DNA of 64,000 nt from Escherichia coli (GCF_001677475.2 NZ_CP015229.1); one strand, 5' to 3'. Counted from the first letter of the stretch, positions 1-15,340 are shown. Numbers and translations are program-made. Notes: generated from the sequence alone by a model not told the origin.

Positions 1-1
1 G

Positions 2-784
2 ATTAACAGCAACGATAAAGATTATCAAGAATACATTGCCACCTACCCATTGCCAATAGATAGCGCAACACATAAAAAAGTCAAAAAATTAAGACCAGTC
101 TGCATCTCCCACTCTCAACATGGTAACTCGATCACTATTACAACAACTTATCTTCGTCCATTCAAAGAAAGAAGTGCAATTGAAACAAATACACTAAGCC
201 CAGCAACACAAAAAGAACTCAATTGTTTTGATGAAATAATTGGAATAAAAGATAGATACATCCAATGTTTTGACACAATTACTTTTAACTATGTTTCCGG
301 CGAAATAACATTTGAAATCGACATGTGTACAAATCTTAACCATAATGAATTGGAGCGCGCATCAACAAGATATCGTAGAATATTAATGTACCTTTTCCAT
401 AAAGAGAATTCATATCACGTCGCCTTCATTAGAAAAAATATATTTACTGCTATCGATAAACTTTACAAATCTGCCGATGGTACCATTTTAAAACTTGGGC
501 ATGCCACAGGAACAGGCTCAGTAAAAGAAGAAAAAATGAGAAAGAGAAAAGATGATTTAAGGAAGGAAAAATATCATGCCGCAGGCTTAGCGGCAATTGG
601 AGGAAAAACTAATAACTTTAGTATTTCTAAACAATGGAATGGAGCACACAATAACATTTTAACAATGCATGTACCCGGACATTTTTCTTTAATTTCATCC
701 TCGCTACCATTTATAAATCATGTTATAATCGAAGGGTGTGTTTGTAAATCAGATTATGAGTTATTGATGTCAAAGGTTTTCTAA
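2..784 (+). CDS. Hypothetical protein, 5'-truncated by window edge; first visible gene of AT-rich three-gene operon
   Basis: Reading frame is open from position 2 to stop at 782-784 (track ORF 50..784 begins at an internal TTG); stop abuts the ATG of the next gene; visibly AT-rich. Confidence 0.45.
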   Translation: MNSNDKDYQEYIATYPLPIDSATHKKVKKLRPVCISHSQHGNSITITTTYLRPFKERSAIETNTLSPATQKELNCFDEIIGIKDRYIQCFDTITFNYVSGEITFEIDMCTNLNHNELERASTRYRRILMYLFHKENSYHVAFIRKNIFTAIDKLYKSADGTILKLGHATGTGSVKEEKMRKRKDDLRKEKYHAAGLAAIGGKTNNFSISKQWNGAHNNILTMHVPGHFSLISSSLPFINHVIIEGCVCKSDYELLMSKVF

Positions 785-1177
785 ATGAATAAGCAGGAAA
801 TGAAAGATATCATACAACATTCTTTTGCTACCGACAGCAAAGTTGGTTTTGCATGTATGAATATTTATCATTACCTGCTTAATGAAGATCTGGATAATTT
901 AAAATATATAACATTCAATAACTTGCAAAAAGTCAGTAATGTTGATCAAAGTATCCTTTACGAGGCAATTACTTATCTATCTGGAGAAAAAGCACCAATA
1001 TTATCAATCGGATACGAATATATTGATGGTGATGACATTTTTGAAATCTCTCAAGATGAGTTAAGCAAAATATATTCAGAAGGAACATTTTATTTCGATG
1101 GCAAACCAGTCCTCAATTGGCAGTCGAAAGTTTACATTTACTTTTATGCATCAGAGTTCTGGAAAGGCCTAGAATGA
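785..1177 (+). CDS. Hypothetical acidic protein (130 aa)
   Basis: ORF 785..1177; ATG directly follows the upstream stop, and its own stop overlaps the next ATG (ATGA), so it is translationally coupled on both sides. Confidence 0.5.
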   Translation: MNKQEMKDIIQHSFATDSKVGFACMNIYHYLLNEDLDNLKYITFNNLQKVSNVDQSILYEAITYLSGEKAPILSIGYEYIDGDDIFEISQDELSKIYSEGTFYFDGKPVLNWQSKVYIYFYASEFWKGLE

Positions 1178-1839
1178 TGGATAATCAGAATAATTTTACG
1201 TTAGAATCGCTGAAGTTCGCAGCGTCATTCGATGAGAGCGCAGCACGCCTTTACCGAAGAATTACATGCAATTCATACGATAAATTTATTGAAATGTTTT
1301 ATATTGACTTAGAAAAAACAATCAGATTGATTGAAAAAAATGCAAGCTTAATGCAAAACGATGGAGAAGACCGTTTATCTATAGAAATAATTAATATACT
1401 AATTGGCTTCGGATATGATTCTGGTCATGATAATTATATAAATGGGCACTCAGACATTGTTGTAAGTTTCAAAAACTACACATGGATTGGAGAGGCTAAA
1501 ATTCATAGCTCATACGACTATTTAATGGAAGGATTCCATCAATTATGCTCTCGTTACTCCACAGGAAGTGAAGATGATTGTCAAGGAGGATTAATAATTT
1601 ATGTGAAAAGCAACAATGCATTAGATGTCGTAGAGAAATGGAAAAAAACATTAACCTCTAAAAAAGATGACTTTGAAGATTTTTATTTATCCGATTGCAA
1701 AACAAGAGAAAAGTTGAGCTTTTACTCTAGCCACAAACACCCTAAATCTGGATTACCATACAAAGTAAGACATTTCGCTGTAATATTGGGATTTGCACCT
1801 AAAGACAAAAGTGCGAGAACAGCAAAGTCCAGAAAATAA
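1174..1839 (+). CDS. Hypothetical protein with PD-(D/E)xK-like motif (putative nuclease fold)
   Basis: Internal ATG of track ORF 1117..1839 overlaps the upstream stop (ATGA). Protein has GEDRLSIEI ... GHSDIVVSF ... IGEAKI, an E / hydrophobic-D / ExK spacing typical of PD-(D/E)xK nucleases; assigned by eye only. Confidence 0.45.
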   Translation: MMDNQNNFTLESLKFAASFDESAARLYRRITCNSYDKFIEMFYIDLEKTIRLIEKNASLMQNDGEDRLSIEIINILIGFGYDSGHDNYINGHSDIVVSFKNYTWIGEAKIHSSYDYLMEGFHQLCSRYSTGSEDDCQGGLIIYVKSNNALDVVEKWKKTLTSKKDDFEDFYLSDCKTREKLSFYSSHKHPKSGLPYKVRHFAVILGFAPKDKSARTAKSRK

Positions 1840-1869
1840 TAAGTTTTATTATCTGGACCAAGGCTGTTT

Positions 1870-2217
1870 TTATCTATTTAGAATACACATAATACCATCA
1901 ATAAATCCAAGTGCAGTTTGCAACTCCTTTCTAATAGTTCCATCCGAGCATTTCCGCTTCTTTGCGATTGTACGGAGTGAAATCCCGATAACAAAGTGAG
2001 CAATGATCAGCTCATATTCTTCTGGTTTATATTTCCGCAACCGGGCCACACATCCATCAATCATAATTCCTTCATCATCATCGCACTGGAGACGTGACTT
2101 TTTACCGTGTGGTAGAAGCCCCTTGAAACCAGCCGCTATCGGCTGCCAGTCGACACCACTATTTTCTGCTGCAGCCCAAGCCCCCCAACGATCTAAAGCT
2201 TCGTACATATCACGCAT
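1870..2217 (-). CDS. Phage antitermination protein Q-like
   Basis: 115 aa beginning MRDMYEALDRWGAWAAAENSGVDW...GFKGLLP...SRLQCDDDEGIMIDGCVARL, which resembles the Q family of lambdoid/Qin-type prophages; it is the last gene of the minus-strand early-right operon. Confidence 0.55.
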   Translation of the reverse strand: MRDMYEALDRWGAWAAAENSGVDWQPIAAGFKGLLPHGKKSRLQCDDDEGIMIDGCVARLRKYKPEEYELIIAHFVIGISLRTIAKKRKCSDGTIRKELQTALGFIDGIMCILNR

Positions 2218-2474
2218 CAGCGCAGTACCTCCTGCACCAGTTTTTCAAACTTTCCAACTTTGGTTTCCAGCTCCGCCACACAATCCACCAGCTCATCCAC
2301 TGCTTTTTGTGCGCGATGTTTCGCCTGCATCAGTTCCCTGAGCGCTGGTACCATATCCCGACGAATGGCATCTTTTGTTACACCTGTTTTTTCCAGTTGT
2401 TCCGCCTGCCGCAACATTTCCTGTGCCTGTTTACGTAATTGCTCAGGGGTAAAAGTCATTGTCTGGTTGTTCAA
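2217..2474 (-). CDS. Hypothetical small helical phage protein (85 aa)
   Basis: ORF between the DnaB-like gene and Q-like gene on the same strand, with start/stop overlaps to both neighbours. Confidence 0.4.
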   Translation of the reverse strand: MNNQTMTFTPEQLRKQAQEMLRQAEQLEKTGVTKDAIRRDMVPALRELMQAKHRAQKAVDELVDCVAELETKVGKFEKLVQEVLR

Positions 2475-3862
2475 AAGAAACGCTCCATCTTACTGCTGTC
2501 AGTTCGTTTGTTACTGTACCTGCGCGGCTTGGACGGCTGCATTGGTGTGGAAAGAACCAGCGCACTTTCCTGGTCTACGGGCAGAAAATGTCCGTTATAA
2601 AAACGCCGGTAAATCGTTCCCAGAGAACCGTTACGTTGTTTCGTGATATTGATTTCCGCGATACCTCTGGCCTGCGTATCCGGGTTGTACACTTCATCCC
2701 TGTAAAGCATCAGAATGATGTCTGCATCAGCTTCTATTTCTCCGGAATTTTTCAGGTCTGAGTTCATAGGTCGTTTATTGGGTCTGGACTCAACTCCACG
2801 GGAAAGTTGGCTCAGCGCAATAACCGGTAATCCACCGGATTTTGCCAGGCCTTTAAGCCCTTTTGATATTTCCCCCACGGCAAGGTCATGACGGCCTGTG
2901 GATCGGGTTTTTATCAGCCCGAGATAATCAACCACCACCAGCGCCGTTTCCGGATGTTTAATCAGGTGGTGTTTCGTTGTTGCGCATATCTCGTCAATGG
3001 TCAGGTTCGCCTGGTCCACCATCCAGATATTGCGTCCGGTCATCAGCTCCACCCCCTTAATGAAACGCGCCCAGTCTTCGTCACCAAAGTGAGAGACAGA
3101 TTTCAGGCGTGATACCGGCATTCCTCCAGCCGCAGATACCATGCGTTCACCAATCTGGATGTTCGCCATTTCCATTGTGAACAGAAGAACACCATGCCCC
3201 TGCTCAGTCACCTTGTCGATGATATCCAGCGCCAGTTCTGTTTTCCCCATCGAAGGGCGAGCCGCGATGAATATCAGGTCGCCAGGCTCCATGCCGCCTG
3301 TTTTTGCGTCCAGTTCATCAATACCGGTCATCAACGTCCTGGATTTCTCCAGCCCCTTATTCCGGCATTCAACACGCTCAACCACCTCGGGAAGCACATC
3401 ATCAATATGTACCGGCTGAATAATGCCCTTTTCCGTCGACAATGAGGCCATCATGTTTTGCGCATCCTTCATGGCATCTTCAGCTGCTTCACAGGTATGC
3501 GCATCGCGTAATTTCTGCAATGCCTCATTCAGTATTTTTTCTGCATCACGCAGTGCAGCATTACGTCGCAGTGCTGCAACATAATGTTCCAGAGATGACT
3601 TCACCCAGGTTTTACGCCCGGAATCAGTAATCACCGGGGCAAGTTCCGGCATCTCATTACACAACAGCACAGGGTCAATCACGCCTGAAACACGGGCCTG
3701 TCGGCAGATGCCTGTGTAGATATCCCGATACGCTCGTACAGAAAAAACGTCTGCCGGCAATGTGGCCAGAATATCCATCACTTCATGATCAGCCCCGCGC
3801 AGAAAGAACGCACCAATGACAGCGCCTTCCAGGTCATCGTTACGCCAGACTGGAGTTGTCAT
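2471..3862 (-). CDS. Replicative DNA helicase, DnaB-like (phage-encoded)
   Basis: Walker A AARPSMGKTELAL, SQLSR motif and DnaB-like N-terminal domain; start taken at MTTPVWR, which overlaps the upstream stop (ATGA). Confidence 0.8.
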   Translation of the reverse strand: MTTPVWRNDDLEGAVIGAFFLRGADHEVMDILATLPADVFSVRAYRDIYTGICRQARVSGVIDPVLLCNEMPELAPVITDSGRKTWVKSSLEHYVAALRRNAALRDAEKILNEALQKLRDAHTCEAAEDAMKDAQNMMASLSTEKGIIQPVHIDDVLPEVVERVECRNKGLEKSRTLMTGIDELDAKTGGMEPGDLIFIAARPSMGKTELALDIIDKVTEQGHGVLLFTMEMANIQIGERMVSAAGGMPVSRLKSVSHFGDEDWARFIKGVELMTGRNIWMVDQANLTIDEICATTKHHLIKHPETALVVVDYLGLIKTRSTGRHDLAVGEISKGLKGLAKSGGLPVIALSQLSRGVESRPNKRPMNSDLKNSGEIEADADIILMLYRDEVYNPDTQARGIAEINITKQRNGSLGTIYRRFYNGHFLPVDQESALVLSTPMQPSKPRRYSNKRTDSSKMERFF

Positions 3863-4746
3863 GCTGCCACACCTCTGATACGAGAACGATAGCTGGGCCA
3901 GTTGAACGACAACCAGTTGCGCCCCCCGTCTGTGATCCTGTCGGCAATGCGGGGGCTGATAAACGCCCACAACTCTTCCGGTGAAAGGTTGCTGATCAGA
4001 ATGGTGGGCAGGATACTTTCGTACCGGGCATTGATAATTTCCTGCAAAATAGCCATTTCAGCCGCGCTGCCAAACTGAACACCAACTTCGTCGATGATCA
4101 GCAAATCCATTGACGCATAATGCTCAATAACTTCATCCGCTGTTTTTTCGCTATCATTCCGCCAGCAGTTTTTCACAGCACGGGTAAGGCGCATCACGTC
4201 GGTGATCTCCACGCTGGCCAGATGATTACGGATGATGTGTTTTGCCATTGATACCGCCAGATGATTTTTCCCGGTACCGCAACTGCCAGTCATAACAAGA
4301 CTGGTGCCGTTCTCCAGCATATCTGGCCAGTTCTCCGCATAGCGGCGACAGGCTGCAAGATTTCTGGCTGCGTCAGGATTAACCTCCAGATAGTTATCAA
4401 ACTCACAGTCCCGAAAACGCAGGGCAATTCCGGCGTTATCAGTCAGCTCTTCCGCCTTGAGGGACGACAGCTCCATGGTCAAATCGTTGGCCTCAGCGAT
4501 CAAGCAGTCAGGGCAGCATGAAATTTTTTCTCTGTCCTCGCCATTACGATCGCTCCACACCAGTATATGCGTACTGTATTTACCGTGTTTTTCGCAATAT
4601 CCACGACCATCACGCATCAGGCAGGAACGATAAGGCCATGGCTTTTCGCCCTTCTGAGCGAATGCAATCTCTGCCCGTAACTCATCCATTCGCGCCTGTA
4701 GTCTTTTTTGTTGTTCACGCAGGTTAAACGTCATCATCGCTGTCAC
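3859..4746 (-). CDS. DnaC/IstB-like AAA+ helicase loader with N-terminal Cys-rich region
   Basis: Walker A GSCGTGKNHLA and Walker B LLIIDEVG; N-terminal CEKHGKY...CCPDC cysteine cluster; sits between the O-like and DnaB-like genes. Confidence 0.75.
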   Translation of the reverse strand: MTAMMTFNLREQQKRLQARMDELRAEIAFAQKGEKPWPYRSCLMRDGRGYCEKHGKYSTHILVWSDRNGEDREKISCCPDCLIAEANDLTMELSSLKAEELTDNAGIALRFRDCEFDNYLEVNPDAARNLAACRRYAENWPDMLENGTSLVMTGSCGTGKNHLAVSMAKHIIRNHLASVEITDVMRLTRAVKNCWRNDSEKTADEVIEHYASMDLLIIDEVGVQFGSAAEMAILQEIINARYESILPTILISNLSPEELWAFISPRIADRITDGGRNWLSFNWPSYRSRIRGVAA

Positions 4747-4747
4747 C

Positions 4748-5662
4748 TCAGAATGTCAATTTGTCACTGGATTTACCGAATTTGTCAGACATGGCTCCCA
4801 GGCCAGACAGGACATCGACCTGTCGCTGTCGCCCACCTCCGGGAGCGGCTGGTTGTTGCCAGAAGTCTTCGAAGTGACGATCGGGGCCAAAGAACGTCGC
4901 TGCCTGCTTCACGAACTGTGTGCCGGTATTTCCTGTAGCACGTACCCAGGCGGCATAGCGTTTCACGCCATCAAGCATGGTTTCGGGTGTCACACCTTCC
5001 CTGATACGGGCTTTCCAGGCTTTGAAAGCAGCTGACTTGGAATTGCCACCAGCACGTTTGGGATATTCCTGCCAGGCCTGTTCAAATTCCGGTGAATATT
5101 CCTGTCGGGCAGAACGTGCTGGTGCAGACGCGTCAGCGGATGCACCAATAGTGTTTTTACTCTCTGTAGTATTCTCTGAAGTAATCTCTGTTGTATTCTC
5201 TGTAAGATCGAAATTGGTTTTCCCTTCTCCGCGGCGAGGGGTTTCCCGTGTCCGCGGTGAAGGCTTTCCCTCCTCCGCGAAATTGGGTTTTACAGTTTCC
5301 CGAAAACGGGTTTCCCCATTTCGGGAAAACTGATTGTTTTCATTGATAATTTCATTAAGGCGCTCACAATCTATACGGTAGAACATTTTGTGCTCAAGAC
5401 GCTTGTTGGTTTCAACCAAAATGCCTCTGGACACAAGATGCTTACGCGCTACAGCCTGTTGTTCAAATGTAAGTCCGGTTTCGTGTTGTATCTCTTCACG
5501 CGTTTTATGTACGCCTTCCGCTGCATGTGCTTTATCCTGCCAGTAAAAAATCTGACCAAAGAAAATAACAGCGTGCGGACTTCCCATGTATTTAACGAGC
5601 CCAGGGTAATAAGCAACCGGATGTCCAAAATCGAGCAGAAGATCAGACGGACGCATAGCCAC
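4748..5662 (-). CDS. Phage replication initiation protein (O-like replisome organiser)
   Basis: 304-aa ORF immediately upstream of the DnaC/DnaB-like pair; contains internal iteron-like direct repeats; start may be MAMRPS (5662) or MRPS (5656). Confidence 0.6.
   Translation of the reverse strand: MAMRPSDLLLDFGHPVAYYPGLVKYMGSPHAVIFFGQIFYWQDKAHAAEGVHKTREEIQHETGLTFEQQAVARKHLVSRGILVETNKRLEHKMFYRIDCERLNEIINENNQFSRNGETRFRETVKPNFAEEGKPSPRTRETPRRGEGKTNFDLTENTTEITSENTTESKNTIGASADASAPARSARQEYSPEFEQAWQEYPKRAGGNSKSAAFKAWKARIREGVTPETMLDGVKRYAAWVRATGNTGTQFVKQAATFFGPDRHFEDFWQQPAAPGGGRQRQVDVLSGLGAMSDKFGKSSDKLTF
5168..5205. repeat. Short direct repeats (ATTCTCTG-like, three copies) inside the O-like gene
   Basis: gtATTCTCTGaagtaATCTCTGttgtATTCTCTGtaag; encodes the repetitive TENTTEITSENTTES stretch. 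Confidence 0.45.
5214..5329. repeat. Iteron array (about five ~23-bp direct repeats); candidate phage replication origin inside the initiator gene
   Basis: Repeats GGTTTTCCCTTCTCCGCGGCGA / GGGGTTTCCCGTGTCCGCGGTGAA / GGCTTTCCCTCCTCCGCGAAATT / GGGTTTTACAGTTTCCCGAAAAC / GGGTTTCCCCATTTCGGGAAAAC; this mirrors the lambda ori-within-O arrangement. Confidence 0.5.
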
Positions 5663-5876
5663 CTCCCAGGCGTTTAAACATTTTTCCGGACTGAAACGCC
5701 ACCAGCGGATAACTCAGGGTATGAGTACGTCCCTGAACCTGGCAGACAACCTTCTGGCTTTCTGTATTGACCAGGCAAACCCGCAGAACGTGACCGTTGC
5801 TGGTGGTGAACCACTGCCCCACACGGGGGCAACGGTTGTATCGGTGATACAGGGAATTAACGACGCGGCGAATCAT
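5643..5876 (-). CDS. Hypothetical small protein (77 aa)
   Basis: ATG at 5874-5876 has a strong GGGAGG Shine-Dalgarno 7 nt upstream and overlaps the upstream stop (ATGA); lies just upstream of the O-like gene. Confidence 0.45.
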   Translation of the reverse strand: MIRRVVNSLYHRYNRCPRVGQWFTTSNGHVLRVCLVNTESQKVVCQVQGRTHTLSYPLVAFQSGKMFKRLGGGYASV

Positions 5877-6379
5877 GGGCGCGCCTCCCATTGATTACGG
5901 CGGAAAGCAGTGTGAGTCAGGCTGGTTTCGGCCTCATGGAATGCTTCAATGCAGCTCTCGTAGTACCGCATTGTGCGCAGACTTAACCCAAGCTGAAGCA
6001 TCATCAGACCATCAAGAGTTATGTAATAACCACGCAAAGAATCGCCATAAAGGTGATAAGTGCCGGGTATGAAATTACGGGTGAAAAACTCGCGCGAGCA
6101 GTTCAGATACTCGATTTTGTCGACGATATTCTGGTGCATGCGCTTGAAGTGGCAGGCAACATGCAGAGAGAAAATAACGGCCTTGCCGTTGACGGTCTCA
6201 ATTTTGAGGAATGGGTGAGTAGTGGTGGTAGTCATGGTGACAGCCCCGGTAGTCAGTTTGTTAGAAAACTCACCACCAAGGCTTTCCACGACCTTATAGG
6301 TGGTGAGACGTACAGGGGTGGAAATACCGGAGACTACCGAACCCGGCCCGACCGAAGTCGGCCCTGTACGCCCCACCAT
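5873..6379 (-). CDS. Hypothetical protein (start uncertain; C-terminal part of a long open frame)
   Basis: Frame is open from 7174 to 5873 but its upstream part overlaps the well-supported FinO-like gene; only the portion downstream of that gene is called. The stop overlaps the next ATG (ATGA); no convincing RBS was found at ATG 6379 or GTG 6472. Confidence 0.3.
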   Translation of the reverse strand: MVGRTGPTSVGPGSVVSGISTPVRLTTYKVVESLGGEFSNKLTTGAVTMTTTTTHPFLKIETVNGKAVIFSLHVACHFKRMHQNIVDKIEYLNCSREFFTRNFIPGTYHLYGDSLRGYYITLDGLMMLQLGLSLRTMRYYESCIEAFHEAETSLTHTAFRRNQWEARP

Positions 6380-6533
6380 AATTTGGGCGTAGCAATGCTC
6401 ATGACACGAAAAAACCGCATGAGCGCGGTTATGCTCAGTAATCAATTTCGGGTTTCCACGCCCGGCATCCACTTTACAAGATGCCTGAATAGTGTAACGT
6501 CCCGAAATTAAGGAATCAATGTTTTGATAAAAT

Positions 6534-6926
6534 TCAGCGATTAGACGCTTCTTTTCTACCCATATTAACTTTGAACAAGAGCTCCATACGACGAGTCCAG
6601 ATACCACGTTCTTTGAGTTGTGCTCTGGCTTCTTCGCGTTCAGATACGGATGTTCTGACAATACGATTTCCCGCCAGATTGCGGCGATATTCTCCAAACG
6701 CGACTGACTGAAGGTATGAATCTGAGCTTTTGTACTGATAGATGGCTCTTCGAAGGCTGTTTTTGTATTCCTTAGGTATATGTCCGAGATCGGCAAAGAG
6801 CTCATGAACGATATCGTGAACAAGCGGAACCACTTTGTATGGAATAACAAAGAAGCTTTCTGGATAGCGTTCAGCCAATACTTTAATGATTTCTTTATTT
6901 GCAAGATGCCTTGCTTTTCTTCCCAT
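6534..6926 (-). CDS. FinO/ProQ-domain RNA chaperone-like protein
   Basis: KEIIKVLAERYPESF...PL...SLRRAIYQYKSSDSYLQSVAFGEYRRNLAGN...EREEARAQLKE aligns by eye with the ProQ N-terminal FinO domain (KEVIAFLAERFPHCF...RSALRLYTSSWRYLYGV...RVDLDGN...EHARKQLEE). Confidence 0.7.
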   Translation of the reverse strand: MGRKARHLANKEIIKVLAERYPESFFVIPYKVVPLVHDIVHELFADLGHIPKEYKNSLRRAIYQYKSSDSYLQSVAFGEYRRNLAGNRIVRTSVSEREEARAQLKERGIWTRRMELLFKVNMGRKEASNR

Positions 6927-6989
6927 ATACCATTCTCCATTACTCTAGATATCAGAATGATATATCCAGGTTTTTCAAGCAGTTCAAGC

Positions 6990-7163
6990 TTATGCTGGTG
7001 CTTCACACTCAACAAAATCACGACGAAACAACCACAGCGGGCTGAAGCATTCATGCGGATAACCATCACGCAGGTAAATAACCCGCTGTGTTTCAGGCTC
7101 CCAGCGTATAACGTGGACACGACGCCCCCTTCCGTCACGGAACCAGCGATTGAGTACTTGCAT
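6990..7163 (-). CDS. Hypothetical small protein (weak call)
   Basis: Short ORF between the Lar-like and FinO-like genes; ATG at 7163 lies 8 nt after the Lar-like stop; RBS is weak. Confidence 0.2.
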   Translation of the reverse strand: MQVLNRWFRDGRGRRVHVIRWEPETQRVIYLRDGYPHECFSPLWLFRRDFVECEAPA

Positions 7164-7389: not shown

Positions 7390-8240
7390 TTGTTCTCCTG
7401 TAAAAGATTCGCAAGCTCAGTGTTATGGGTAAACAGCCCATCCCATGTTTTCTTCATCGGTAGTTCGCCGTTCAGATAATGGCGATATAACCAGGCAGCA
7501 CCTTTGGGCTTTAGTAACGGTTTAAAGGTGTCTCGCATTTCCCCATTTTCCTGCTCAACCCGGTTGTAGCGCTCCGTCAGATACTGATCACGTGCATACG
7601 CTTTTACACGCCAGCGTGGATACATAGCCTCCGGACGGTCGTCATACAGCCAGTTACGCTCTTCAAGGAACGCATTAATCTGACGAGTGTTTACACCGTT
7701 GAGTTGTTTGCAGAACTGCACAGGAGTGATGCCATCGGCGAGATGACTTTCGAGTTTGCTGATGTAGCGAGCCTGACGCTCTGCATACCCGAGAGCAAGG
7801 CGCTCGGATTTTTTGGCTTCAATCCACGCTTCAGCAGCAGCGATCGGATCGTCAAAGTCTGGAATAGTGTTTGAAGAAGGCGTTGCTTTACGAAAATACG
7901 CCTGCTCCATTTTTTCGAAGAACGACCAGGCCTCGTCTGTATCGACGATTTTTGACATGCGGGCAGCGCCGCGTTCTGTCCAGAGGACAAGTGATGTTGT
8001 ATGTTTATTAACCGACTCGCTAAAAGATAGTCGGAAAGATTTCAGCTCATCACTGCTGATTTTGAAAAAGTGTTTACCCTCAACGAAACGATCTTCATTT
8101 CGAATGTAGTTCTGTTGTATACGGATTGGCGTTGTTCCATATCCCGCCGCCAACGTTTCGGTGGTAACTACACGTACTCCCTGCCACTCAATAACTGGCA
8201 AGTTTTCAGGGTTGACTAATTTTTGTTTATTGATCATCAT
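7386..8240 (-). CDS. Phage antirepressor-like protein (ORF6N/KilA-N-type N-terminal domain)
   Basis: N-terminal IEWQGVRVVTTETLAAGYG...IRNEDRFVEGKHFFKI is characteristic of the ORF6N antirepressor domain; located immediately downstream of the Cro-like gene. Confidence 0.6.
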   Translation of the reverse strand: MMINKQKLVNPENLPVIEWQGVRVVTTETLAAGYGTTPIRIQQNYIRNEDRFVEGKHFFKISSDELKSFRLSFSESVNKHTTSLVLWTERGAARMSKIVDTDEAWSFFEKMEQAYFRKATPSSNTIPDFDDPIAAAEAWIEAKKSERLALGYAERQARYISKLESHLADGITPVQFCKQLNGVNTRQINAFLEERNWLYDDRPEAMYPRWRVKAYARDQYLTERYNRVEQENGEMRDTFKPLLKPKGAAWLYRHYLNGELPMKKTWDGLFTHNTELANLLQENK

Positions 8241-8316
8241 GAAATCCCCTTACTAATCAGAATAAGTCGGGCTGACGGAGTGCGGCCCGGCTTTTCTTTT
8301 TTCGTTCAGTAACCGT

Positions 8317-8583
8317 TCATCGCATGGACATTTCTGATGAATCACTCTGCCCATCTTCCGTGTGCGCTAAGCTTGGATGTGCTCCACGCTTGTTTTTGCG
8401 CGAGCGGTTCTTGTACAGGTTCAGATCGCACTTCAGAGCTCCATCAGTTAGTTTCTCAAGCTCCAGAGCACGCCCTTTAGGTACAATTGCTCCCCATCGA
8501 GTAACAGCCACTTGCGATACATCTAAAGCGCGCGCAACCTTTGCTTTAGTTCCAAAAAACGCAACTGCGTCTTGTGTTTTCAT
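8317..8583 (-). CDS. Cro/YdaS-like HTH DNA-binding protein
   Basis: 88 aa with N-terminal HTH (KAKVARALDVSQVAVTRW); divergent from the XRE repressor gene across a ~95-bp intergenic region. Confidence 0.55.
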   Translation of the reverse strand: MKTQDAVAFFGTKAKVARALDVSQVAVTRWGAIVPKGRALELEKLTDGALKCDLNLYKNRSRKNKRGAHPSLAHTEDGQSDSSEMSMR

Positions 8584-8678
8584 ACCACCTCCAAATAACT
8601 TATGTTTATCTTACTTCTATAACCATAGTTAGTTCAAGTTAACATATATTAATGATTCAACTAGTAGAGAGGATCCCC
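8584..8678. promoter_or_regulatory. Divergent promoter/operator region of the prophage immunity switch (predicted)
   Basis: AT-rich spacer between divergent HTH genes containing partially symmetric AGTTCAAGTTAAC / TTCAACTAGTA elements; operator sites not defined. Confidence 0.3.
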
Positions 8679-9065
8679 ATGGAAATAAGCGAACGCATTA
8701 CTATGAGACGCAAAGAGTTAGGACTTACCAAACTAGCCCTAGCCAAGACGCTAGGGCTGTCAGGTGTCAGCATATTGAAGTGGGAAAATGGGCAAAACGA
8801 GCCAAGCGGGAAAAACCTTTTCGCTCTCAGTGACGCTCTAAAATGCTCCCCGGCATGGTTGCTTTTTGGTGACGAAGATAAGTCTCCGACGCCAGTTGAT
8901 GAACTTCCAACAGAATTAGACGAGCAGCAAACTCAACTACTGAGTTTATTCAATCAACTACCAGACTCGGAAAAAACCATATTAATCAATGAGATATCAG
9001 CAAGAGTTGAGAACTTCAACAAACTATTTGAAGAATTACTAAGGGTCAGAAAACAACGCAAATAA
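8679..9065 (+). CDS. XRE-family HTH repressor (CI-like, short, no peptidase domain)
   Basis: MEISERITMRRKELGLTKLALAKTLGLSGVSILKWENG has an HTH_XRE signature; GAGAGGA RBS before ATG 8679; no S24/LexA-like autocleavage domain is visible. Confidence 0.6.
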   Translation: MEISERITMRRKELGLTKLALAKTLGLSGVSILKWENGQNEPSGKNLFALSDALKCSPAWLLFGDEDKSPTPVDELPTELDEQQTQLLSLFNQLPDSEKTILINEISARVENFNKLFEELLRVRKQRK

Positions 9066-9070
9066 TTATA

Positions 9071-9104
9071 AAACGGCAATCTATTCAGTAGGTTGCCGTT
9101 TTCT
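9071..9104 (+). terminator. Rho-independent terminator downstream of the repressor gene
   Basis: Hairpin CGGCAATCTATTCAGTAGGTTGCCG followed by TTTTC. Confidence 0.45.
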
Positions 9105-9209
9105 CACCCCCAAAAAACTAACTTTTATTAATTTTTACTTGCCCTAAAAGTTATCTTTAGTTATTGTTTGTGGCGTTTAGTTAATGCAACAAAAGTTATA
9201 GACGAAATT

Positions 9210-9668
9210 ATGAACACTCAAAATGGCGAACTTGACTTATTTGACATAGCAGACGAATCACAGATTTTGAACGATTTACTCTCAGTTATTGCATCCGTAA
9301 TCACACATGCAAGCAACGAAATAAACGAAATTGAATCGTGCATGAGCATTGCCTGGAGGATTAGCTCTTCAATTAATGAAAACTTACTTAAGCTCACCAG
9401 AACAGCACAAGCTAAATCAGCGCGTTCATGCAAACAAAATTTAGCTATTAATTCACAGAATCGTCTTCGCCACCAACGCGAAGCCTGCGGCTTAACAACC
9501 GCCGAACTCGCCAGGCTGCTCGATCTCGATGAAGAAATTATCATCCAGTGGGAGAGCGGAGAGTATGAACCAACTATCAGTATGCTTATCCCACTGGCAA
9601 ATGTTCTTGGTTGCGACCCGATATGGCTGTTAACTGGTAAACCAACAGGTGGGGATACTTGCGCATGA
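9210..9668 (+). CDS. Hypothetical protein with C-terminal XRE-type HTH domain
   Basis: C-terminal GLTTAELARLLDLDEEIIIQWESGEYEPTISMLIPLANVLGCDPIWLL is a typical HTH_XRE; the N-terminal ~90 aa are unassigned; start codon uncertain (track ORF begins at 9168). Confidence 0.5.
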   Translation: MNTQNGELDLFDIADESQILNDLLSVIASVITHASNEINEIESCMSIAWRISSSINENLLKLTRTAQAKSARSCKQNLAINSQNRLRHQREACGLTTAELARLLDLDEEIIIQWESGEYEPTISMLIPLANVLGCDPIWLLTGKPTGGDTCA

Positions 9669-9907
9669 AAAACTGTGATGCTTACCACATATGTCTCATT
9701 GGTGAATTGCTTGATTGCATACAAAAAAGCGCTGAGCGCAATAATAAAAATATAACATACGGTAATCTGGCAATAATTTCAGAGGATATTAAGAGCATCG
9801 CTCTTAAATTCAAGAGCGATGCGAACATTGACGACACTATTTACGCTTATCTTGCGAAAATAGTTGACGGATCCAAAAACCAGCCTCTGGATGAGGACCG
9901 TCAGTAA
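9665..9907 (+). CDS. Hypothetical small protein (80 aa)
   Basis: ATG overlaps the upstream stop (ATGA); its 3' end overlaps a convergent minus-strand ORF. Confidence 0.35.
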   Translation: MKNCDAYHICLIGELLDCIQKSAERNNKNITYGNLAIISEDIKSIALKFKSDANIDDTIYAYLAKIVDGSKNQPLDEDRQ

Positions 9908-10064
9908 AAAATTCATTTGATGAACATGAGAAGTGCTTCATAAAATTTACTTTATCTTCAGGTGAAACCACCTGACGAATTAATGCAGAGATAGCGACTT
10001 TGTGCCACATTAATTCTTTTTTGAGCGCTGAAATTTCTTTTTCAAGTTGCTCTTCGTTAATCAT
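9837..10064 (-). CDS. Hypothetical small coiled-coil protein (75 aa)
   Basis: ATG at 10062-10064 is preceded by a GGAGGA Shine-Dalgarno; the protein (MINEEQLEKEISALKKEL...) is predicted helical; it overlaps the 3' end of the plus-strand ORF 9665..9907. Confidence 0.4.
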   Translation of the reverse strand: MINEEQLEKEISALKKELMWHKVAISALIRQVVSPEDKVNFMKHFSCSSNEFFTDGPHPEAGFWIRQLFSQDKRK

Positions 10065-10244
10065 TTTATCCTCCATTGAGAGCTGAATTGTAAATGGAGA
10101 CCAACACGCGGCTACGTGTGGTCGTGCGCCGGACACGGATAAGCATCCGGTAACTAATTATCAATCATTGAGGAAACAGTCTCAATATGAAAACACTTCT
10201 GAGACTCGCTATATAGCAGAACATATAAGTCAGCTGAGGAAGCC

Positions 10245-10610
10245 ATGAAAAAGTTCGAAAACATAACTGTTCTCCATGTTGATGACTTTGATTATACAAA
10301 CCCGGAACTTCTCCCGGAGGTTGTAAAGGCAATAGATGTTGCCGATATAGTGATTAGAGGAAAGAGAATTGTCAAAAACAGGCTCGCATGCACTTCAGGA
10401 GCAATGACAGAAACAACCTCACAACAAGATGATTATGAAGGCATTTGTCTGGAGCCTGACTCATTTGCGGTAAATGTTTATCATTTATTGCATGCAACAC
10501 AGGTATTACATATGTCAAGTAATCACGAAACAAAAACACTTGGCAGCGAAATTCTGAATTTTGCATGTGAATATGCAAAAGCTGCTGCCGAAAAAGAATT
10601 AGCGCAATAA
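10245..10610 (+). CDS. Hypothetical protein (121 aa)
   Basis: ORF with GAGGAA RBS upstream of the ATG; no recognised motifs. Confidence 0.45.
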   Translation: MKKFENITVLHVDDFDYTNPELLPEVVKAIDVADIVIRGKRIVKNRLACTSGAMTETTSQQDDYEGICLEPDSFAVNVYHLLHATQVLHMSSNHETKTLGSEILNFACEYAKAAAEKELAQ

Positions 10611-10806
10611 CAATAAATATTCCCTGAATGTTTATTACGGTTTTATCGCCGGGGATTGTTGCAACCTTTATTCGCAGGAGATTATGTTATGACTTTCCTG
10701 AAACATAAGGCATCGTATAAAACTGCCTGCCTCATTGCACAACATGGAGATTCTTATCTTCATATAGCCAACCTGTATTTGCGCAAAGCATATGGGAGAT
10801 AAGTCA

Positions 10807-10995
10807 ATGGAAGAAAAACAACTGAACATAACACATGAAAAAGTAAGAGTGTTGCTAACTATTGAAAATGGAAAAGTAATTTACTCAAAACATCTGCTGG
10901 ATAATGAATTCGTTGGCTGCATGGATACATTTCTGTGGATGGCAAAAAGAGCAGGCTACACGATTATTCCACCAGCAAAGGAGCAAACATTATGA
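10807..10995 (+). CDS. Hypothetical small protein (62 aa)
   Basis: Internal ATG with GGGAG RBS; its stop overlaps the next ATG (ATGA). Confidence 0.35.
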   Translation: MEEKQLNITHEKVRVLLTIENGKVIYSKHLLDNEFVGCMDTFLWMAKRAGYTIIPPAKEQTL

Positions 10996-11573
10996 ATCAT
11001 TCAGAGTTCCAACCAGAAGTTACGCCACATGGCATAAAAATTGGCAATACAACCATTGATTATGTTGAGGCCGTACAGCGACTTAATGATGGTGAGTACG
11101 ACAATCCATACTGGCACGGTTTAAGAATCATGCAATGTATTGCGGAAGCCGATGATGCCGGATTCCTGGGAAGATTTTCAGTCGATCTGAAGGTTGCTCA
11201 GTGGCGCTGGCTGTATGTAGCGAAATTTATCAGTGAAGAGGAAGACAAGAACGGCACCATTGATATCCCTAACGATAACGGAACTACAGATCGCGCAGTT
11301 ATTTATAAGGGGAAGCATGGTTGCATGAGTATATACCCAGGGCCACTTCGCATTGCCCTGCAAAACCATGTCGAATGGGGATTCATTGAAAAATATGGCG
11401 AAGCTGAAGGCATGGGGCGAGTTCTGTTTCTCTATCAAAAAATGCTCATCGCAGATCCTGATAATGGCTTCATTGTCTCTGCTATGGGACGAGAAGGGCT
11501 TGAACTTCTTCTGGATGAAATGATTCACGATCTGAATACTCATGGTATGCCAGAAACACCAGTGGCACATTAA
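10992..11573 (+). CDS. Hypothetical protein (193 aa)
   Basis: ATG overlaps the upstream stop; no recognised motifs. Confidence 0.5.
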   Translation: MNHSEFQPEVTPHGIKIGNTTIDYVEAVQRLNDGEYDNPYWHGLRIMQCIAEADDAGFLGRFSVDLKVAQWRWLYVAKFISEEEDKNGTIDIPNDNGTTDRAVIYKGKHGCMSIYPGPLRIALQNHVEWGFIEKYGEAEGMGRVLFLYQKMLIADPDNGFIVSAMGREGLELLLDEMIHDLNTHGMPETPVAH

Positions 11574-11575
11574 AT

Positions 11576-11854
11576 ATGTCAAATCAGAATAAAATTAATG
11601 TATTTCAGGTTGAGTCAAAACATAAAACACCTGTGATAAAACACGTTCGCCGCCATACACGCATCTATACGCCAGAAGAGTTTATGGCAATGCCAATGAT
11701 AAAGAAACTCATACGAGACAATCCCGGTCTCGTTGCTATAGATAAAAACAGTGGAGAAATAATGTTATCACGTGAGATTGCCGAAATTTACTGTAGCGTG
11801 AATAACAGTAAAAAGTTGAAAAAGGCAATCAGAAAGATATCAGGAGGAGCATGA
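11576..11854 (+). CDS. Hypothetical basic protein (92 aa)
   Basis: ORF immediately after the previous stop; its own stop overlaps the next ATG. Confidence 0.45.
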   Translation: MSNQNKINVFQVESKHKTPVIKHVRRHTRIYTPEEFMAMPMIKKLIRDNPGLVAIDKNSGEIMLSREIAEIYCSVNNSKKLKKAIRKISGGA

Positions 11855-12039
11855 ATATTTATTTCAGAATAGTCATATCACTGGCAATTATCGCATGCAT
11901 TTACGGATTACTCGTCCCGTTTCTGATATCAATGAAGGATACGGTAGCGGTAATTTCTGGCTTTGCACTGACGTTTCTGACCCCGCCATGCATTTATGCC
12001 ATTTATAAGGGGCTTTCTTTCACTAAGGATAAAAGATGA
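11851..12039 (+). CDS. Small hydrophobic membrane protein (62 aa)
   Basis: Two hydrophobic stretches (IVISLAIIACIYGLLVPFLI and VAVISGFALTFLTPPCIYAIY); translationally coupled on both sides (ATGA overlaps). Confidence 0.45.
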   Translation: MNIYFRIVISLAIIACIYGLLVPFLISMKDTVAVISGFALTFLTPPCIYAIYKGLSFTKDKR

Positions 12040-12863
12040 AAAAAATTATTTTTTCTTTAGCCATTGTTCTGCCTGCCATTGGCCTTGTCGGTTGTGATCG
12101 TGTTGAACCAGGTAATGTTGGCATCAAGGTAAATAAACTGGGCGACGACAAAGGCGTCGGTGAGGTGGTCGGTGTTGGTCGCTACTGGACTGGCTGGAAT
12201 ACTGAAGTTTACATCTTCCCCACCTTCAAGCAAATGAAGACCTACGATGAACCGTTCAGTTTCCAGATGAGTGACGGTACAACCATCGGCTATCACATTG
12301 GCGTGGCCTACAAAGTTGATCCATCCAAAGTTACCACGGTGTTTCAGACTTACCGCAAAGGCGTGGATGACATTACCGACACTGACCTGCGCCAGAAGAT
12401 CGCCGACGCACTCAACCGACTGGCCAGCAAAATGACCACTGACAAATTTATCGACGGCGGGAAGTCTGAACTACTGGATGCAGCTCTTAAAGACATTCAG
12501 GCAGAGATGACACCTATCGGTATTCAGGTAATGAGCCTCTCATATGTGGGTAAGCCGGAGTACCCGCCTACTGTTATCGACAGCATTAATGCCAAAGTCA
12601 CGGCGAACCAGAAAACACTGCAGCGCGAGCAGGAAGTTAAACAGCGCGAAGCGGAAGCCAACATGTTGCGCGCGGAAGCTGCCGGACAGGCTGATGCGAT
12701 TCGCACAAAAGCCCAGGCCGAAGCCGATGCTATTCGTTTACGCGGTGAAGCTCTGCGCCAGAACCCCGGTGTTATGGAGCTGGAAGCCATCAATAAATGG
12801 AACGGCACACTGCCGCAATACATGACCAGCGGTGCCAATACACCATTTATCCAGGTTAAATAA
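12036..12863 (+). CDS. SPFH/band-7 (stomatin/prohibitin-like) domain lipoprotein
   Basis: Signal peptide with lipobox LVGC; body resembles SPFH domain proteins, followed by an Ala/Glu/Gln-rich coiled-coil (QREQEVKQREAEANMLRAEAAGQADAIRTKAQAEADAIRLRGEA). Confidence 0.6.
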   Translation: MKKIIFSLAIVLPAIGLVGCDRVEPGNVGIKVNKLGDDKGVGEVVGVGRYWTGWNTEVYIFPTFKQMKTYDEPFSFQMSDGTTIGYHIGVAYKVDPSKVTTVFQTYRKGVDDITDTDLRQKIADALNRLASKMTTDKFIDGGKSELLDAALKDIQAEMTPIGIQVMSLSYVGKPEYPPTVIDSINAKVTANQKTLQREQEVKQREAEANMLRAEAAGQADAIRTKAQAEADAIRLRGEALRQNPGVMELEAINKWNGTLPQYMTSGANTPFIQVK

Positions 12864-12903
12864 CTTATATGCCCGGCAGAACGCCGGGCTAAGGAAAAAA
12901 CAG

Positions 12904-13275
12904 ATGAATACCCAGAATACTCAACCGCAAATAATGAATTATGACCCGAATCTGACGTCATGCGGACGCATGGCAAAACAAACCGTTCGATTAACTTTCG
13001 GGCTATGGGAATACCGCGAAACATTCGAAGTTACTGTCGGTGGCAACCTGACCGGACTCGATGTTATCAGTTGCGCTATTGAAAGTCTGTACGCAACTCT
13101 GCCTTATGAAGAAGTCCAGAATGAGCGCACAGGGGGAACGGATATCATGGCTACCATTAATATTGGCGAACTGACATGCCAGGATGAAGACCTGTCCGGA
13201 GAGCTCTGGCTTGCCGGGATGCTTATCTCAGCAGAAATTATCAGTATTGAACCCGCTACAAACATACGGCTTTGA
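12904..13275 (+). CDS. Hypothetical protein (123 aa)
   Basis: Internal ATG of track ORF 12832..13275 with an A-rich RBS region. Confidence 0.4.
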   Translation: MNTQNTQPQIMNYDPNLTSCGRMAKQTVRLTFGLWEYRETFEVTVGGNLTGLDVISCAIESLYATLPYEEVQNERTGGTDIMATINIGELTCQDEDLSGELWLAGMLISAEIISIEPATNIRL

Positions 13276-13306
13276 AGTTCTCACTATTCAGAGAGCAGGA
13301 GAAAAA

Positions 13307-13549
13307 ATGTTCGCTTTGATTAATCAGGGACAGCTGTATACCGACAGTGCCGGTTACCCGGTAAAAATTATTCGCTGCATAAATAACACTGTGTTGTACA
13401 GAAGAATGGATGGGCGAACACAGTCGGTAAAAATAAACGATTTTAATGAAATGTTTGAACGGCTCGATCACCTAGAATACCGACAAATTCAGGCAGAAGC
13501 AGAGCAGGAAACTCATCTAAAAAAATTACGGGCCATGAAAAGGAAGTAA
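13307..13549 (+). CDS. Hypothetical protein (80 aa)
   Basis: ATG with AGGAGA RBS (cagagagcaggagaaaaaATG). Confidence 0.4.
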   Translation: MFALINQGQLYTDSAGYPVKIIRCINNTVLYRRMDGRTQSVKINDFNEMFERLDHLEYRQIQAEAEQETHLKKLRAMKRK

Positions 13550-13707
13550 AGAATGAATAAAGCGTTTGAACTATAGGTACGCCAGCGTTACGGCAATCGC
13601 TATGATCTGACGCGAGATGTTGACGGTTTCTACTGTCGTGAAATTGTGAAACGAATGTTTGAAGTGTGGTGCCACTGCCGTGGGCTAAATGTTGTATGAG
13701 GTGAACT

Positions 13708-13917
13708 GTGGGGCTGGATTGCGTACCTATATCAACCTACTGCCGCAACGCAGGAGAAACGGTTGATGCCGTTAACAAACGGATACAAAGAGGAATATGG
13801 AAAGAAGGGGTACATGTATTAAAAGTCGACGGAGTTAAAGAACGTTGGGTCGACTTAATGGAGATTACAAAATGGGCAAGAAAGAACAAGGATCATTATC
13901 TCTCCCCAGAGGAGTAA
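13708..13917 (+). CDS. Excisionase-like protein (putative Xis)
   Basis: 69-aa ORF with GTG start and GAGGTG RBS, immediately upstream of and overlapping the integrase gene; small winged-helix-like protein typical of Xis. Confidence 0.45.
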   Translation: MGLDCVPISTYCRNAGETVDAVNKRIQRGIWKEGVHVLKVDGVKERWVDLMEITKWARKNKDHYLSPEE

Positions 13918-15044
13918 CTATTCGCCAGCATAAAACTGGCAGCACCATGGTTATCACTTTTACATATAAAGGGGTTCTGTGTCGGGAGCCCCTCTCCAGA
14001 ATGGAAGTAAATGCGCGCGGTGTGAAGTACGCCGAGCGTCTGCTGGGAGAAATAAAAAATCAGATTATCGATGGTACCTTCGAATATGCAAAATACTTCC
14101 CCAACTCCCAAAAACTGGAGCTGTTCGGGGGAGTGAAAAAAAACAAAAATATAAAATCTTACCTGGATGAATACCTGATTATCTGCCAGAACCGTAACCT
14201 GTCACCATCGACAATTAAAGGTTATGAAAAATGCCTGTCGGCGCTGTCAGCACTGCACAAATTTCATGTATCAGAACTGACGCCAGCAGTACTCAAAAAC
14301 TGGATCGCCAGCAGAAAAACAAAACTGAAAACGATCCGCAATAATCTTTCATTTCTGCGCAGCGCCATAGATGAAGCGGTAACAGATGGTTTGTTAACAA
14401 TAAATCCTGTCACGCTAGTCAGCGCCAGCCGATATCACGTATTAGACAACACACCAGGCAGTGATGATTACGAGGTCGATCCTTTTACGCCAGCGGAGAC
14501 AGCAGCAATCTATGACGCCTGTCATTACCCGGAATGGCGAAATCTGTTTCGCTTCGCCTTTAATACCGGGCTGCGCAGCTCAGAATTGTGCGCGCTGCGC
14601 TGGACAGATATAGACTTCATCGACAACACAGCGCATGTCCAGACTGCAAGCGTAGTCGGGGTAATCAAAAGCACCAAAACAAAAGCCGGCACTCGCAAAG
14701 TACAACTGAACAGCGAAGCGCTGGCGGCTCTTCAGGCACAAAAGCCCTACACAGCGCTAAAAAGCGACTTTATATTCAGCGATCCGAAAACTCGCGCCCC
14801 TTGGGCAAACGCGGACGCGATTCGAAAAAAAGCCTGGCTACCAACCCTTAAAAAGGCTGGAGTACGCTATCGCAATCCGTACCAGACACGCCACACGTTC
14901 GCCACTAGGCACATTAGCCAGGGCGTTAATCTGTTCTGGCTTGCTGGTCAGATGGGGCATAAAGGACCGGAAATGCTGTTCAGACATTACGGTTCTTACC
15001 TTGCAGAATACGATGGAAAAACGGCGATTTCTGCAACCCCGTGA
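13872..15044 (+). CDS. Phage tyrosine integrase (IntR/IntS-like)
   Basis: C-terminal catalytic region with RHTFATRHISQGVNLFWLAGQMGHKGPEMLFRHYGSYL (R/H/Y motif region); N-terminal arm-binding-like domain; GGAG RBS before ATG 13872. Confidence 0.8.
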   Translation: MGKKEQGSLSLPRGVTIRQHKTGSTMVITFTYKGVLCREPLSRMEVNARGVKYAERLLGEIKNQIIDGTFEYAKYFPNSQKLELFGGVKKNKNIKSYLDEYLIICQNRNLSPSTIKGYEKCLSALSALHKFHVSELTPAVLKNWIASRKTKLKTIRNNLSFLRSAIDEAVTDGLLTINPVTLVSASRYHVLDNTPGSDDYEVDPFTPAETAAIYDACHYPEWRNLFRFAFNTGLRSSELCALRWTDIDFIDNTAHVQTASVVGVIKSTKTKAGTRKVQLNSEALAALQAQKPYTALKSDFIFSDPKTRAPWANADAIRKKAWLPTLKKAGVRYRNPYQTRHTFATRHISQGVNLFWLAGQMGHKGPEMLFRHYGSYLAEYDGKTAISATP

Positions 15045-15313
15045 CGGCAAAATATTTCAAAATGTTGTACATAATCAGGACGTTACAGGGACAACAATAT
15101 GTACGTAAAATGCACATAATTCCTTGTTTGAAAAAATAAATCGTTCATATTCAATAAATTGGATTAATCACGATCACGGGTTCAACTCCCGCCAGCCAAT
15201 CATGATTGGACGGTGTAAGGACAACACCAACAAAAACAGGAAGTTAGAAGTCTCAGCAGGACACCGACCAGACGGTGAGGAGACATAAAAGGATACGCAA
15301 AGGAGCCGCGGCT

Positions 15314-15340
15314 CCTGGTGACATGAAAGCCCACAGATGT
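15314..15340 (+). terminator. Rho-independent terminator-like hairpin in the int-ypjA intergenic region
   Basis: AGCCCACAGATGTGGGCT followed by TTTTT. Confidence 0.4.

Follow-up and report, generated by a model that had tools for sequence, protein, structure and literature searches.

The Shiga toxin (Stx) 2e-converting phage phiP27 (AJ298298 / NC_003356) carries the DnaC/DnaB-type replication module that is standard for phiP27-like phages, and relatives of this type sit at yecE. In Escherichia coli K-12, the attachment site at the 3′ end of ssrA is occupied by CP4-57, a P4-like integrative element (intA, alpA, abpAB, rnlAB) whose integrase gene adjoins ssrA. Lambdoid prophages can bear convergent cargo genes between the antiterminator gene Q and the lysis genes, such as nmpC in DLP12 and lc in PA-2. 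Finally, the RexA/RexB pair of lambda is a prophage-encoded exclusion module expressed in the lysogen, whose sensor, the phage-exclusion protein RexA, shares the RdgC/CENP-N fold (PMC11077077). Here we compare with these systems a prophage situated at one end of a 64,000-nt stretch of DNA from E. coli (GCF_001677475.2, NZ_CP015229.1; the whole stretch is hereafter called the window, with positions counted from its first letter). Our overall explanation, to which we assign a probability of around 0.7, is that of a phiP27-like prophage with a cargo slot on the Q side, the slot being filled by a prophage-borne defence cassette.

A phiP27-type prophage with a cargo slot beside Q

Sequence comparisons make it very probable that positions 1–15196 of the window are the integrase-proximal part of a phiP27-type lambdoid prophage inserted in the ssrA site, and that the AT-rich operon at the start of the window is the content of its cargo slot. 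Genes were assigned from six-frame open reading frames (ORFs) and family scans (Pfam, NCBIfam, PHROGs and PADLOC), and RNAs from Rfam. The map order is int, xis, early-left genes, a DicA-type repressor/Cro pair, an antirepressor, an O-like initiator, a DnaC-like loader, a DnaB-like helicase and Q; that is, a divergent repressor/Cro switch, then a replication module and then Q, as in phiP27 and its Stx-phage relatives, with int and xis at one end of the prophage, adjoining the att core. The family scans bear out the gene order and strands of a lambda-type map that a first-pass annotation, made from the sequence alone, had proposed, together with its claim that the element encodes both its own helicase loader (a DnaC/IstB-like protein, 3859–4746, minus strand) and its own replicative helicase (DnaB family, 2471–3862, minus strand). 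However, the genes between xis and the repressor, which had been taken for cargo, turned out to be the usual early-left set of phiP27 (SPFH, DUF5406 and DUF4222 proteins), common to phiP27 and to the relatives at the ssrA site.

The right boundary is marked by the 20-bp attR core CGGGTTCAACTCCCGCCAGC (15177–15196, plus strand), which alignment with K-12 and strain HNSQ2209 identifies as the displaced 3′ end of ssrA (the equivalent of K-12 psaA), the repeat of the ssrA 3′ end being identical over its 20 bp; the attL copy would lie outside the window. Collinearity with K-12 begins at position 15192 in a local BLAST, and everything to the right of the core aligns as backbone common to K-12 and HNSQ2209, the right flank being identical to the psaA-to-ypjA sequence of K-12. 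From the position of the core and the start of this collinearity, the element ends around 15196, and the end previously placed at 15340 has to be moved to ca. 15191–15196. The integrase gene (int, 13872–15044, plus strand) does adjoin ypjA (15359–20056, minus strand), as had been noticed, and CP4-57 was also correctly named for this neighbourhood of K-12, where it is flanked by ssrA and the psaA relic, at 160 bp from ypjA. The two elements thus share the attachment site at the ssrA 3′ end and the right flank from the psaA relic to ypjA, but their genes are unrelated and their orientations differ, with the integrase at the ypjA end in the window prophage and next to ssrA in CP4-57. Full prophages are found at this same site in other strains: a related one in HNSQ2209 spans from ssrA to ypjA, with tail genes by ssrA and the integrase by ypjA, and MFDS1022581 carries a complete Stx2g prophage between ssrA and ypjA.

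In the phage collection, phiP27 is the best named relative (51 % of the query at 93.8 % identity), followed by Stx1a-, Stx2a-, Stx2c- and Stx2d-converting phages. It has the same early-left genes, the same O-like/DnaC-like/DnaB-like module and the same overall map, but differs in its immunity region, its integrase and its location, the window prophage being at ssrA; additionally, homology ends inside Q (query position 2171), because phiP27 has another Q allele and no cassette. The cassette, as we designate the three-gene AT-rich operon (genes g1, g2 and g3), is found between Q and the late genes in the Stx1a phages of O145:H28 strains (e.g., Stx1_14040, LC567819) and in the Stx2e prophages of pig strains cq9 and HNSQ2209. 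The repressors of these phages belong to the LexA family (S24) and their antirepressors are different ones, whereas the window prophage has a DicA-type repressor and ORF6N-ANT, Lar and ProQ-like genes; all the cassette-bearing relatives examined carry LexA-family or XRE-family repressors, and the immunity region of the window is its own. The block comprising the cassette, Q, helicase, loader and O-like genes is 95–96.6 % identical over window positions 1 to 5191–5888 in three relatives (loci L002, L005 and L006), and HNSQ2209 (locus L001) aligns at 94 % over positions 1–4434 only. Since the block from the cassette to the replication genes is common to one set of relatives, and that from the early-left genes to int is common to another, the sequence identifies the prophage as a new mosaic of the known phiP27 and Stx-phage pool in a well-known attachment site.

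The window starts within the cassette, and the organization beyond it was examined in nine relatives of varied backgrounds, eight of them from the cassette-bearing genomes described below and one a phage record. They include the record of phage Stx1_14040 (Stx1a), the Stx1a prophage of the O145:H28 strain 16003 and the toxin-free prophages of strains E300082, TUM9812, E100341 and C311. In every one of them, an intact late/lysis/terminase region follows on the side of the cassette away from Q, the toxin gene being stx1a, stx2e or absent. The place expected for stxAB in an Stx-converting phage, from Q/pR′ to the lysis genes, falls outside the window. Two late arrangements were found, both on the expected strand: one has genes for stx1AB, nanS-p, holin, endolysin and terminase, and the other a 198-bp ORF, a DNA methyltransferase gene, tRNAs, with or without stx2e or TerB/DUF3927 genes, followed by holins, an M15 endolysin, an HNH gene and terminase.

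These comparisons bear on the junction between Q and the cassette. The first-pass annotation had remarked that Q abuts a convergent AT-rich operon, which is correct (the operon, <1–1839, plus strand, lies 30 bp from the Q stop codon), and had left two explanations, a defective remnant or an insertion; the relatives favour the insertion and not the remnant, since the same junction precedes late genes in 9/9 of them. In these relatives, Q abutting foreign genes is a layout that complete phages stably have, rather than the scar of a truncation, and the late region would be lacking simply because the window ends. A further idea, that the three genes might belong to the late operon, does not hold, because they are on the opposite strand and are also found as a module by themselves in defence islands outside phages. 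We consider it improbable that the window copy is a defective remnant that lost its late region, with the AT-rich operon marking the junction of a deletion or replacement. The absence of late genes from the window, a 5-bp deletion in the attR core, the mosaic look of the Ash/Rha region and the partial coverage of the region by any complete genome (71 % at most) are in line with such a remnant; nevertheless, 22 genomes have a Q-cassette junction identical to the last base, the nine relatives continue into late genes, and every early, replication and integration gene of the window has an intact ORF of the length expected.

Of 5426 complete E. coli genomes, 22 contain the cassette sequence (window 1–1870), always in single copy, at least 99.4 % identical and beside the same Q. 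Gene Q (1870–2217, minus strand) is the last early-right gene and encodes an antiterminator of 115 aa (PF06530, E 4.7e-45, 152.8 bits, cutoff 26) with weak similarity to Q21 chain 6p18 (E 0.005). The Q allele of the window (at least 99 % identity) occurs only with the cassette, whereas related alleles (82–92 % identity) are found in ca. 400 genomes without it, and their homology breaks off ca. 25 nt before the 3′ end of Q is reached. The slot holds other genes in other prophages: in ETEC1734, whose replication and early region is ca. 93 % identical to that of the window prophage, it contains a convergent ompC-like porin gene, and in 2014C-4423 it contains dam and a convergent ParB/Srx gene. 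The porin gene is likewise on the opposite strand, directly after Q and before the late genes, and has the same late-leader block beyond it; the difference lies in the cargo, a porin in one case and a nuclease-containing operon of three genes in the other. Together, the sequences point to a slot that recurrently takes up cargo, lying between a Q gene of the Q21 family and what is probably a displaced late promoter.

The late-leader block (...TAACGCGTACGCAAAA..TAT.GTA...TGnTAAGAGTGGTyACTTnGnCACA.AGCTTA) is a conserved sequence that heads the late strand on the far side of the cargo and is followed by an intrinsic terminator (e.g., AACCCGCCGATGCGCGGGTTTTTTT in Stx1a phages) and then by the late genes. 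It is situated ca. 2.2 kb from Q past the cassette (8560–8700, minus strand, in locus L004; also in L005, L007, L008, L011, L034, L035, L039 and L040), and 2.4 kb from Q in 2014C-4423. The block accompanies PF06530-type Q genes only: all the annotated loci with a PF06530 Q contain it, and the Stx2g relative, whose Q is of the lambda type, lacks it. Among the 50 loci that an alignment of g3 retrieved from the viral contigs of IMG/VR, a PF06530 Q converges on g3 in 14; the block appeared in 10 of 12 IMG/VR cassette loci with Q, always just upstream of g1 and on the opposite strand, and in none of six sampled IMG/VR loci without Q. An Rfam scan of the block identified no family. It contains a direct repeat with a period of 8 bp (GTyAC-N3-GnCAC) and an 8-bp palindrome (GCGTACGC); for comparison, the element bound by 21Q consists of TGAGCA directly repeated at an 8-bp spacing (PMC6606751). 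We infer that the block is a candidate unit of pR′, Q-binding element and tR′ for this Q lineage, with the cargo inserted between Q and its target. The late promoter, the Q-binding site and the terminator would then be displaced to the far side of the cassette, and late transcription would not need to cross it.

A conserved three-gene cassette as a candidate defence system

The cassette has a GC content of 33.1 %, as compared to ca. 50 % in its neighbours, and its genes overlap or abut, converging with Q. Gene g1 (1–784, plus strand; phrog_12777) is cut by the start of the window and is missing ca. 90 codons, with the full gene present in locus L004 (8732–9784); in relatives it encodes a basic protein of 350 aa (isoelectric point, pI, 9.2), and its family comprises 441 representative clusters at 50 % identity, all of ca. 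350 aa. An AlphaFold2 model of g1 (mean predicted local distance difference test, pLDDT, 97) had RdgC (2owl) as its top Foldseek match (E 4e-6, probability 1.0, ca. 300 columns), followed by CENP-N. One marginal match of the g1 profile to Cas7 in the PDB (E 0.006) was dismissed, nothing else relevant being found in this database. Gene g2 (785–1177, plus strand; phrog_11490) encodes an acidic protein of 130 aa (pI 4.5); a word-indexed homologue search returned near-identical copies only, and its distant homologues were gathered from genomic contexts, where one lies between g1 and g3 in all the distant loci examined. Gene g3 (1174–1839, plus strand) encodes a protein of 221 aa with a catalytic D...(D/E)xK motif on a restriction-endonuclease fold, and is predicted by this motif and the BamHI-like fold of its model to be a PD-(D/E)xK nuclease, the putative effector; its profile did not match any PDB sequence.

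No transmembrane segment was found in the three proteins, which did not show family-level matches in Pfam, NCBIfam or PADLOC and fall in three PHROGs of unknown function. The window proteins had no significant match in PADLOC-DB 2.0.0, and scans of individual family members gave one marginal match among 85 for g1 and, for g3, matches in 3 of 22 members, limited to the nuclease region of PDC-S54. No account of the trio came up in literature searches by protein accession, by PHROG identifier or by RdgC together with defence terms.

The gene order g1-g2-g3 was maintained in 10/10 loci from genomes and metagenomes, down to a g1 identity of 22 %, and in 46 of the 50 viral contigs. The four exceptions are technical, with two loci cut by the end of the contig and two with a g2 under the detection threshold, and the trio is therefore intact in 56 of 60 distant loci overall. 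Its neighbours include known defence genes: in Lysobacter it adjoins a Gabija system (GajA, E 9e-215; GajB, E 7e-213) and RmrA; in Serratia and in one metagenome contig, a type IIG restriction-modification (RM) system (E about 0); and in another metagenome contig, AbiL (E 4e-93) and a McrB-N protein. Further copies are found in integrase islands, in a P4-like satellite and in prophage cargo slots. The recurrence of a conserved operon beside known defence genes and on mobile elements leads us to favour, by a modest measure, the interpretation of the cassette as a prophage-borne anti-phage defence system. It would be expressed in the lysogen from its own promoter, acting in exclusion of other phages: the basic g1 protein, with its RdgC fold, would bind or encircle DNA as a sensor, the small acidic g2 protein would couple or restrain g1 and g3, and the BamHI-like nuclease g3 would cut DNA. 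A DNA-binding sensor with a nuclease effector would be the simplest mechanism.

Among known systems, the Rex module offers a parallel. Like RexA, g1 is predicted to have an RdgC-like fold, its best matches being RdgC and then CENP-N. However, g1 has no sequence relation to RexA (hhalign probability 0.1), the cassette lacks a RexB-like membrane protein, as indicated by its low maximum hydropathy, its partners are an acidic protein and a PD-(D/E)xK nuclease, and it occupies a different genomic slot. We tentatively raise the possibility, which we hold with less than even confidence, that the trio is an undescribed Rex-like exclusion system in which a nuclease effector replaces the membrane channel, spread by temperate phages, including Stx1a- and Stx2e-converting ones, through a slot of ca. 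2 kb between Q and the late promoter. Regarding nuclease-effector systems, the comparison with Shedu SduA, Hachiman HamA, NucC, McrC and the PADLOC candidate PDC-S54 gave no family-level match to named systems, and the partners g1 and g2 are unique to the cassette among those compared.

Two other functions were considered. The cassette might serve the cycle of the phage itself, for instance in the control of recombination or replication, with an RdgC-like protein and a nuclease modulating RecA/RecBCD. E. coli RdgC does modulate RecA and recombination (PMC11077077), and the cassette is common on phage contigs (the 50 IMG/VR loci, 14 of them linked to Q). Nevertheless, we find this function unlikely: the cassette is transcribed opposite to both the early and the late operons, it is rare and patchy (22/5426 genomes) and decays while the prophage remains, and copies in chromosomal islands without phage genes lie beside Gabija, type IIG RM and AbiL. 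Alternatively, the constancy of the trio could be that of a selfish addiction module of the toxin-antitoxin kind, in which g3 would be a toxin restrained by the acidic g2 and maintained by post-segregational killing. This is quite unlikely in our view, since a third large conserved protein with a DNA-binding fold is always there (56/60 loci, the exceptions being technical), which is not expected of a simple two-part toxin-antitoxin pair; besides, many such modules act in defence anyway, so that this alternative overlaps with the defence function proposed here.

Several observations weigh against our overall explanation of a phiP27-like prophage with a defence cassette in its slot. Regarding the prophage, its late genes would lie beyond the window, its own completeness being deduced from that of its relatives, and complete E. 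coli genomes cover the region to 71 % at most, which makes conclusions drawn from relatives indirect. Also, the attR of the window has lost 5 bp (CCAG-----CCAATC) relative to that of HNSQ2209 (CCAGCTCCACCAATC), at a position where K-12 psaA has a 1-bp deletion, and this may impair excision. Regarding the slot, no convincing sigma-70 −35/−10 pair could be read by eye in the late-leader block, so the placement of pR′ is by inference, and there is a weak promoter-like site directly after Q (TAGATA-17-GATAAT, 1876–1848). We rejected the latter as the main pR′ because it is weak and because the gap between Q and g3, of 30 bp in the window, is only 9 bp in an Enterobacter relative; moreover, the element conserved across relatives lies beyond the cassette. 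Regarding the cassette, the argument from neighbourhoods is associative, and the trio is dispensable, given that it is frameshifted or decayed in two relatives: in HNSQ2209 an extra A in an A-run shifts the frame of g3 (L001, 18174–18836), and in C311 all three genes are disrupted (L026, 6732–8835). Lastly, the TM-score of g1 to RdgC is only 0.35–0.40, none of 85 g1 homologues matches any Pfam family, RdgC included, and the profile comparison with RexA mentioned above was negative.

Immunity region, induction and remaining genes

A repressor gene is present where the first-pass annotation had placed it, but the label cI is not appropriate, because its product (8652–9065, plus strand; 137 aa) is of the DicA type, with a helix-turn-helix (HTH) only (HTH_3, E 2e-14; NF007257 DicA, 177 bits, cutoff 101) and without an S24 peptidase domain. 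Divergent from it are genes for a Cro-type regulator (8317–8583, minus strand; 88 aa; P22_Cro, E 9e-19) and an antirepressor of 284 aa with ORF6N and ANT/KilAC domains (7386–8240, minus strand; PF10543, E 2e-20; PF03374, E 8e-7). A promoter-like sequence, TTGACT-17-CATCAT (8212–8240, plus strand), is followed by a strong plus-strand terminator hairpin with an 11-bp stem and a T-run (8264–8293); this site (8212–8303, plus strand) is antisense to the 5′ leader of the antirepressor gene, and a sar-like antisense RNA against ant is conceivable.

A second antirepressor-type gene, an Ash/Rha-type ORF of 168 aa starting at MVGRTG (5873–6379, minus strand; Ash and pRha matches), has directly upstream, and overlapping its start, the genes for a C4 antisense RNA (6296–6383, minus strand; RF01695, 81.9 bits, gathering cutoff 45) and for an isrK-like Hfq-binding small RNA (6408–6484, minus strand; RF01394, 53.4 bits, gathering cutoff 50). 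The Ash/Rha ORF is the likely target of these RNAs, and with a C4 RNA gene preceding it, as in P1 ImmI, the set of C4, isrK and Ash/Rha looks like an RNA-controlled antirepressor module of the P1 ImmI or Gifsy-1 type. This region shares 80 % identity with the "ash family protein" region of HNSQ2209. The Pfam match to Ash partly overlies the RNA genes, and the family signal may stem in part from translated RNA sequence. A longer ORF of 433 aa (5873–7174, minus strand) was rejected as a gene because it overlies the ProQ-like and DUF4222 genes, which are read in a different frame; the last 168 codons are its sole credible part, the Ash and pRha matches being in the C-terminal half of this long ORF, and it constitutes a trap for automatic gene callers. 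The gene for a ProQ/FinO-domain protein of 130 aa (6534–6926, minus strand; PF04352, E 2e-13) adjoins the C4 and isrK genes, and its product may be their dedicated RNA chaperone.

No LexA box (CTGT-N8-ACAG) was found in the prophage (1–15196), the sole perfect one in the window being outside it, at 63043–63058. Considering the repressor without an S24 domain, the absence of a LexA box and the two antirepressor-type genes (ORF6N-ANT and Ash/Rha), induction is probably brought about by an antirepressor rather than by RecA-mediated cleavage, and an RNA control of an antirepressor-type gene fits a non-cleavable repressor and the absence of a LexA box.

The early-right operon comprises Cro, the antirepressor, the putatively RNA-controlled Ash/Rha gene and the O-like, DnaC-like and DnaB-like genes, followed by Q, and the late genes would lie beyond the start of the window. 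In addition to those already described, it contains, on the minus strand, genes for a Lar restriction-alleviation protein (7171–7389; PF14354, E 2e-11) and a DUF4222 protein (6990–7181; PF13973, E 2e-15), and a small gene at 5643–5891. The O-like replication initiator (4748–5662, minus strand; 304 aa) matches phrog_270, "replication initiation protein" (E 2.7e-67), and has no match in Pfam. It is followed by the genes for the AAA+ loader (295 aa; IstB_IS21, E 2e-15; NF005931 DnaC, E 2.8e-38, under the equivalog cutoff) and the helicase (463 aa; DnaB_C, E 5e-73; DnaB N-terminal domain, E 2e-5; TIGR00665, E 2e-92). Between the helicase gene and Q there is a small conserved hypothetical gene (2217–2474, minus strand; phrog_2565), which is annotated in all relatives.

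The early-left operon runs from the repressor side to xis and int. Its genes (9168–13549, plus strand), assigned by family and PHROG scans and including phrog_5451 and phrog_1515, code among others for a second HTH protein (9168–9668), an SPFH/Band-7 protein (12036–12863), a DUF5406 protein (12904–13275) and a DUF4222 protein (13307–13549), all on the plus strand. They are followed by the excisionase gene xis (13708–13917, plus strand; phrog_2917, E 1.5e-40) and by int, whose product is a tyrosine integrase of 390 aa (Phage_integrase, E 6e-20; Arm-DNA-bind_2, E 9e-19).

Outside the prophage, downstream of ypjA, there is another AT-rich stretch (20500–24000, GC 0.33–0.38), which is collinear with K-12 and contains ileY, coding for a tRNA-Ile(CAU) (22961–23036) that ARAGORN labels as Met-CAT.

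Implications for lambdoid prophages and Stx phages

The absence of a late promoter immediately after Q does not by itself denote a defective prophage, which matters for the reading and calling of Stx and other lambdoid prophages. The cassette is widespread and strictly conserved (441 g1 clusters), has no family assignment, shows the hallmarks of a defence system, and occurs in Shiga-toxin phages from pigs, cattle and humans. If functional, it would represent a new combination of sensor and effector, with possible consequences for superinfection and for how Stx phages spread.

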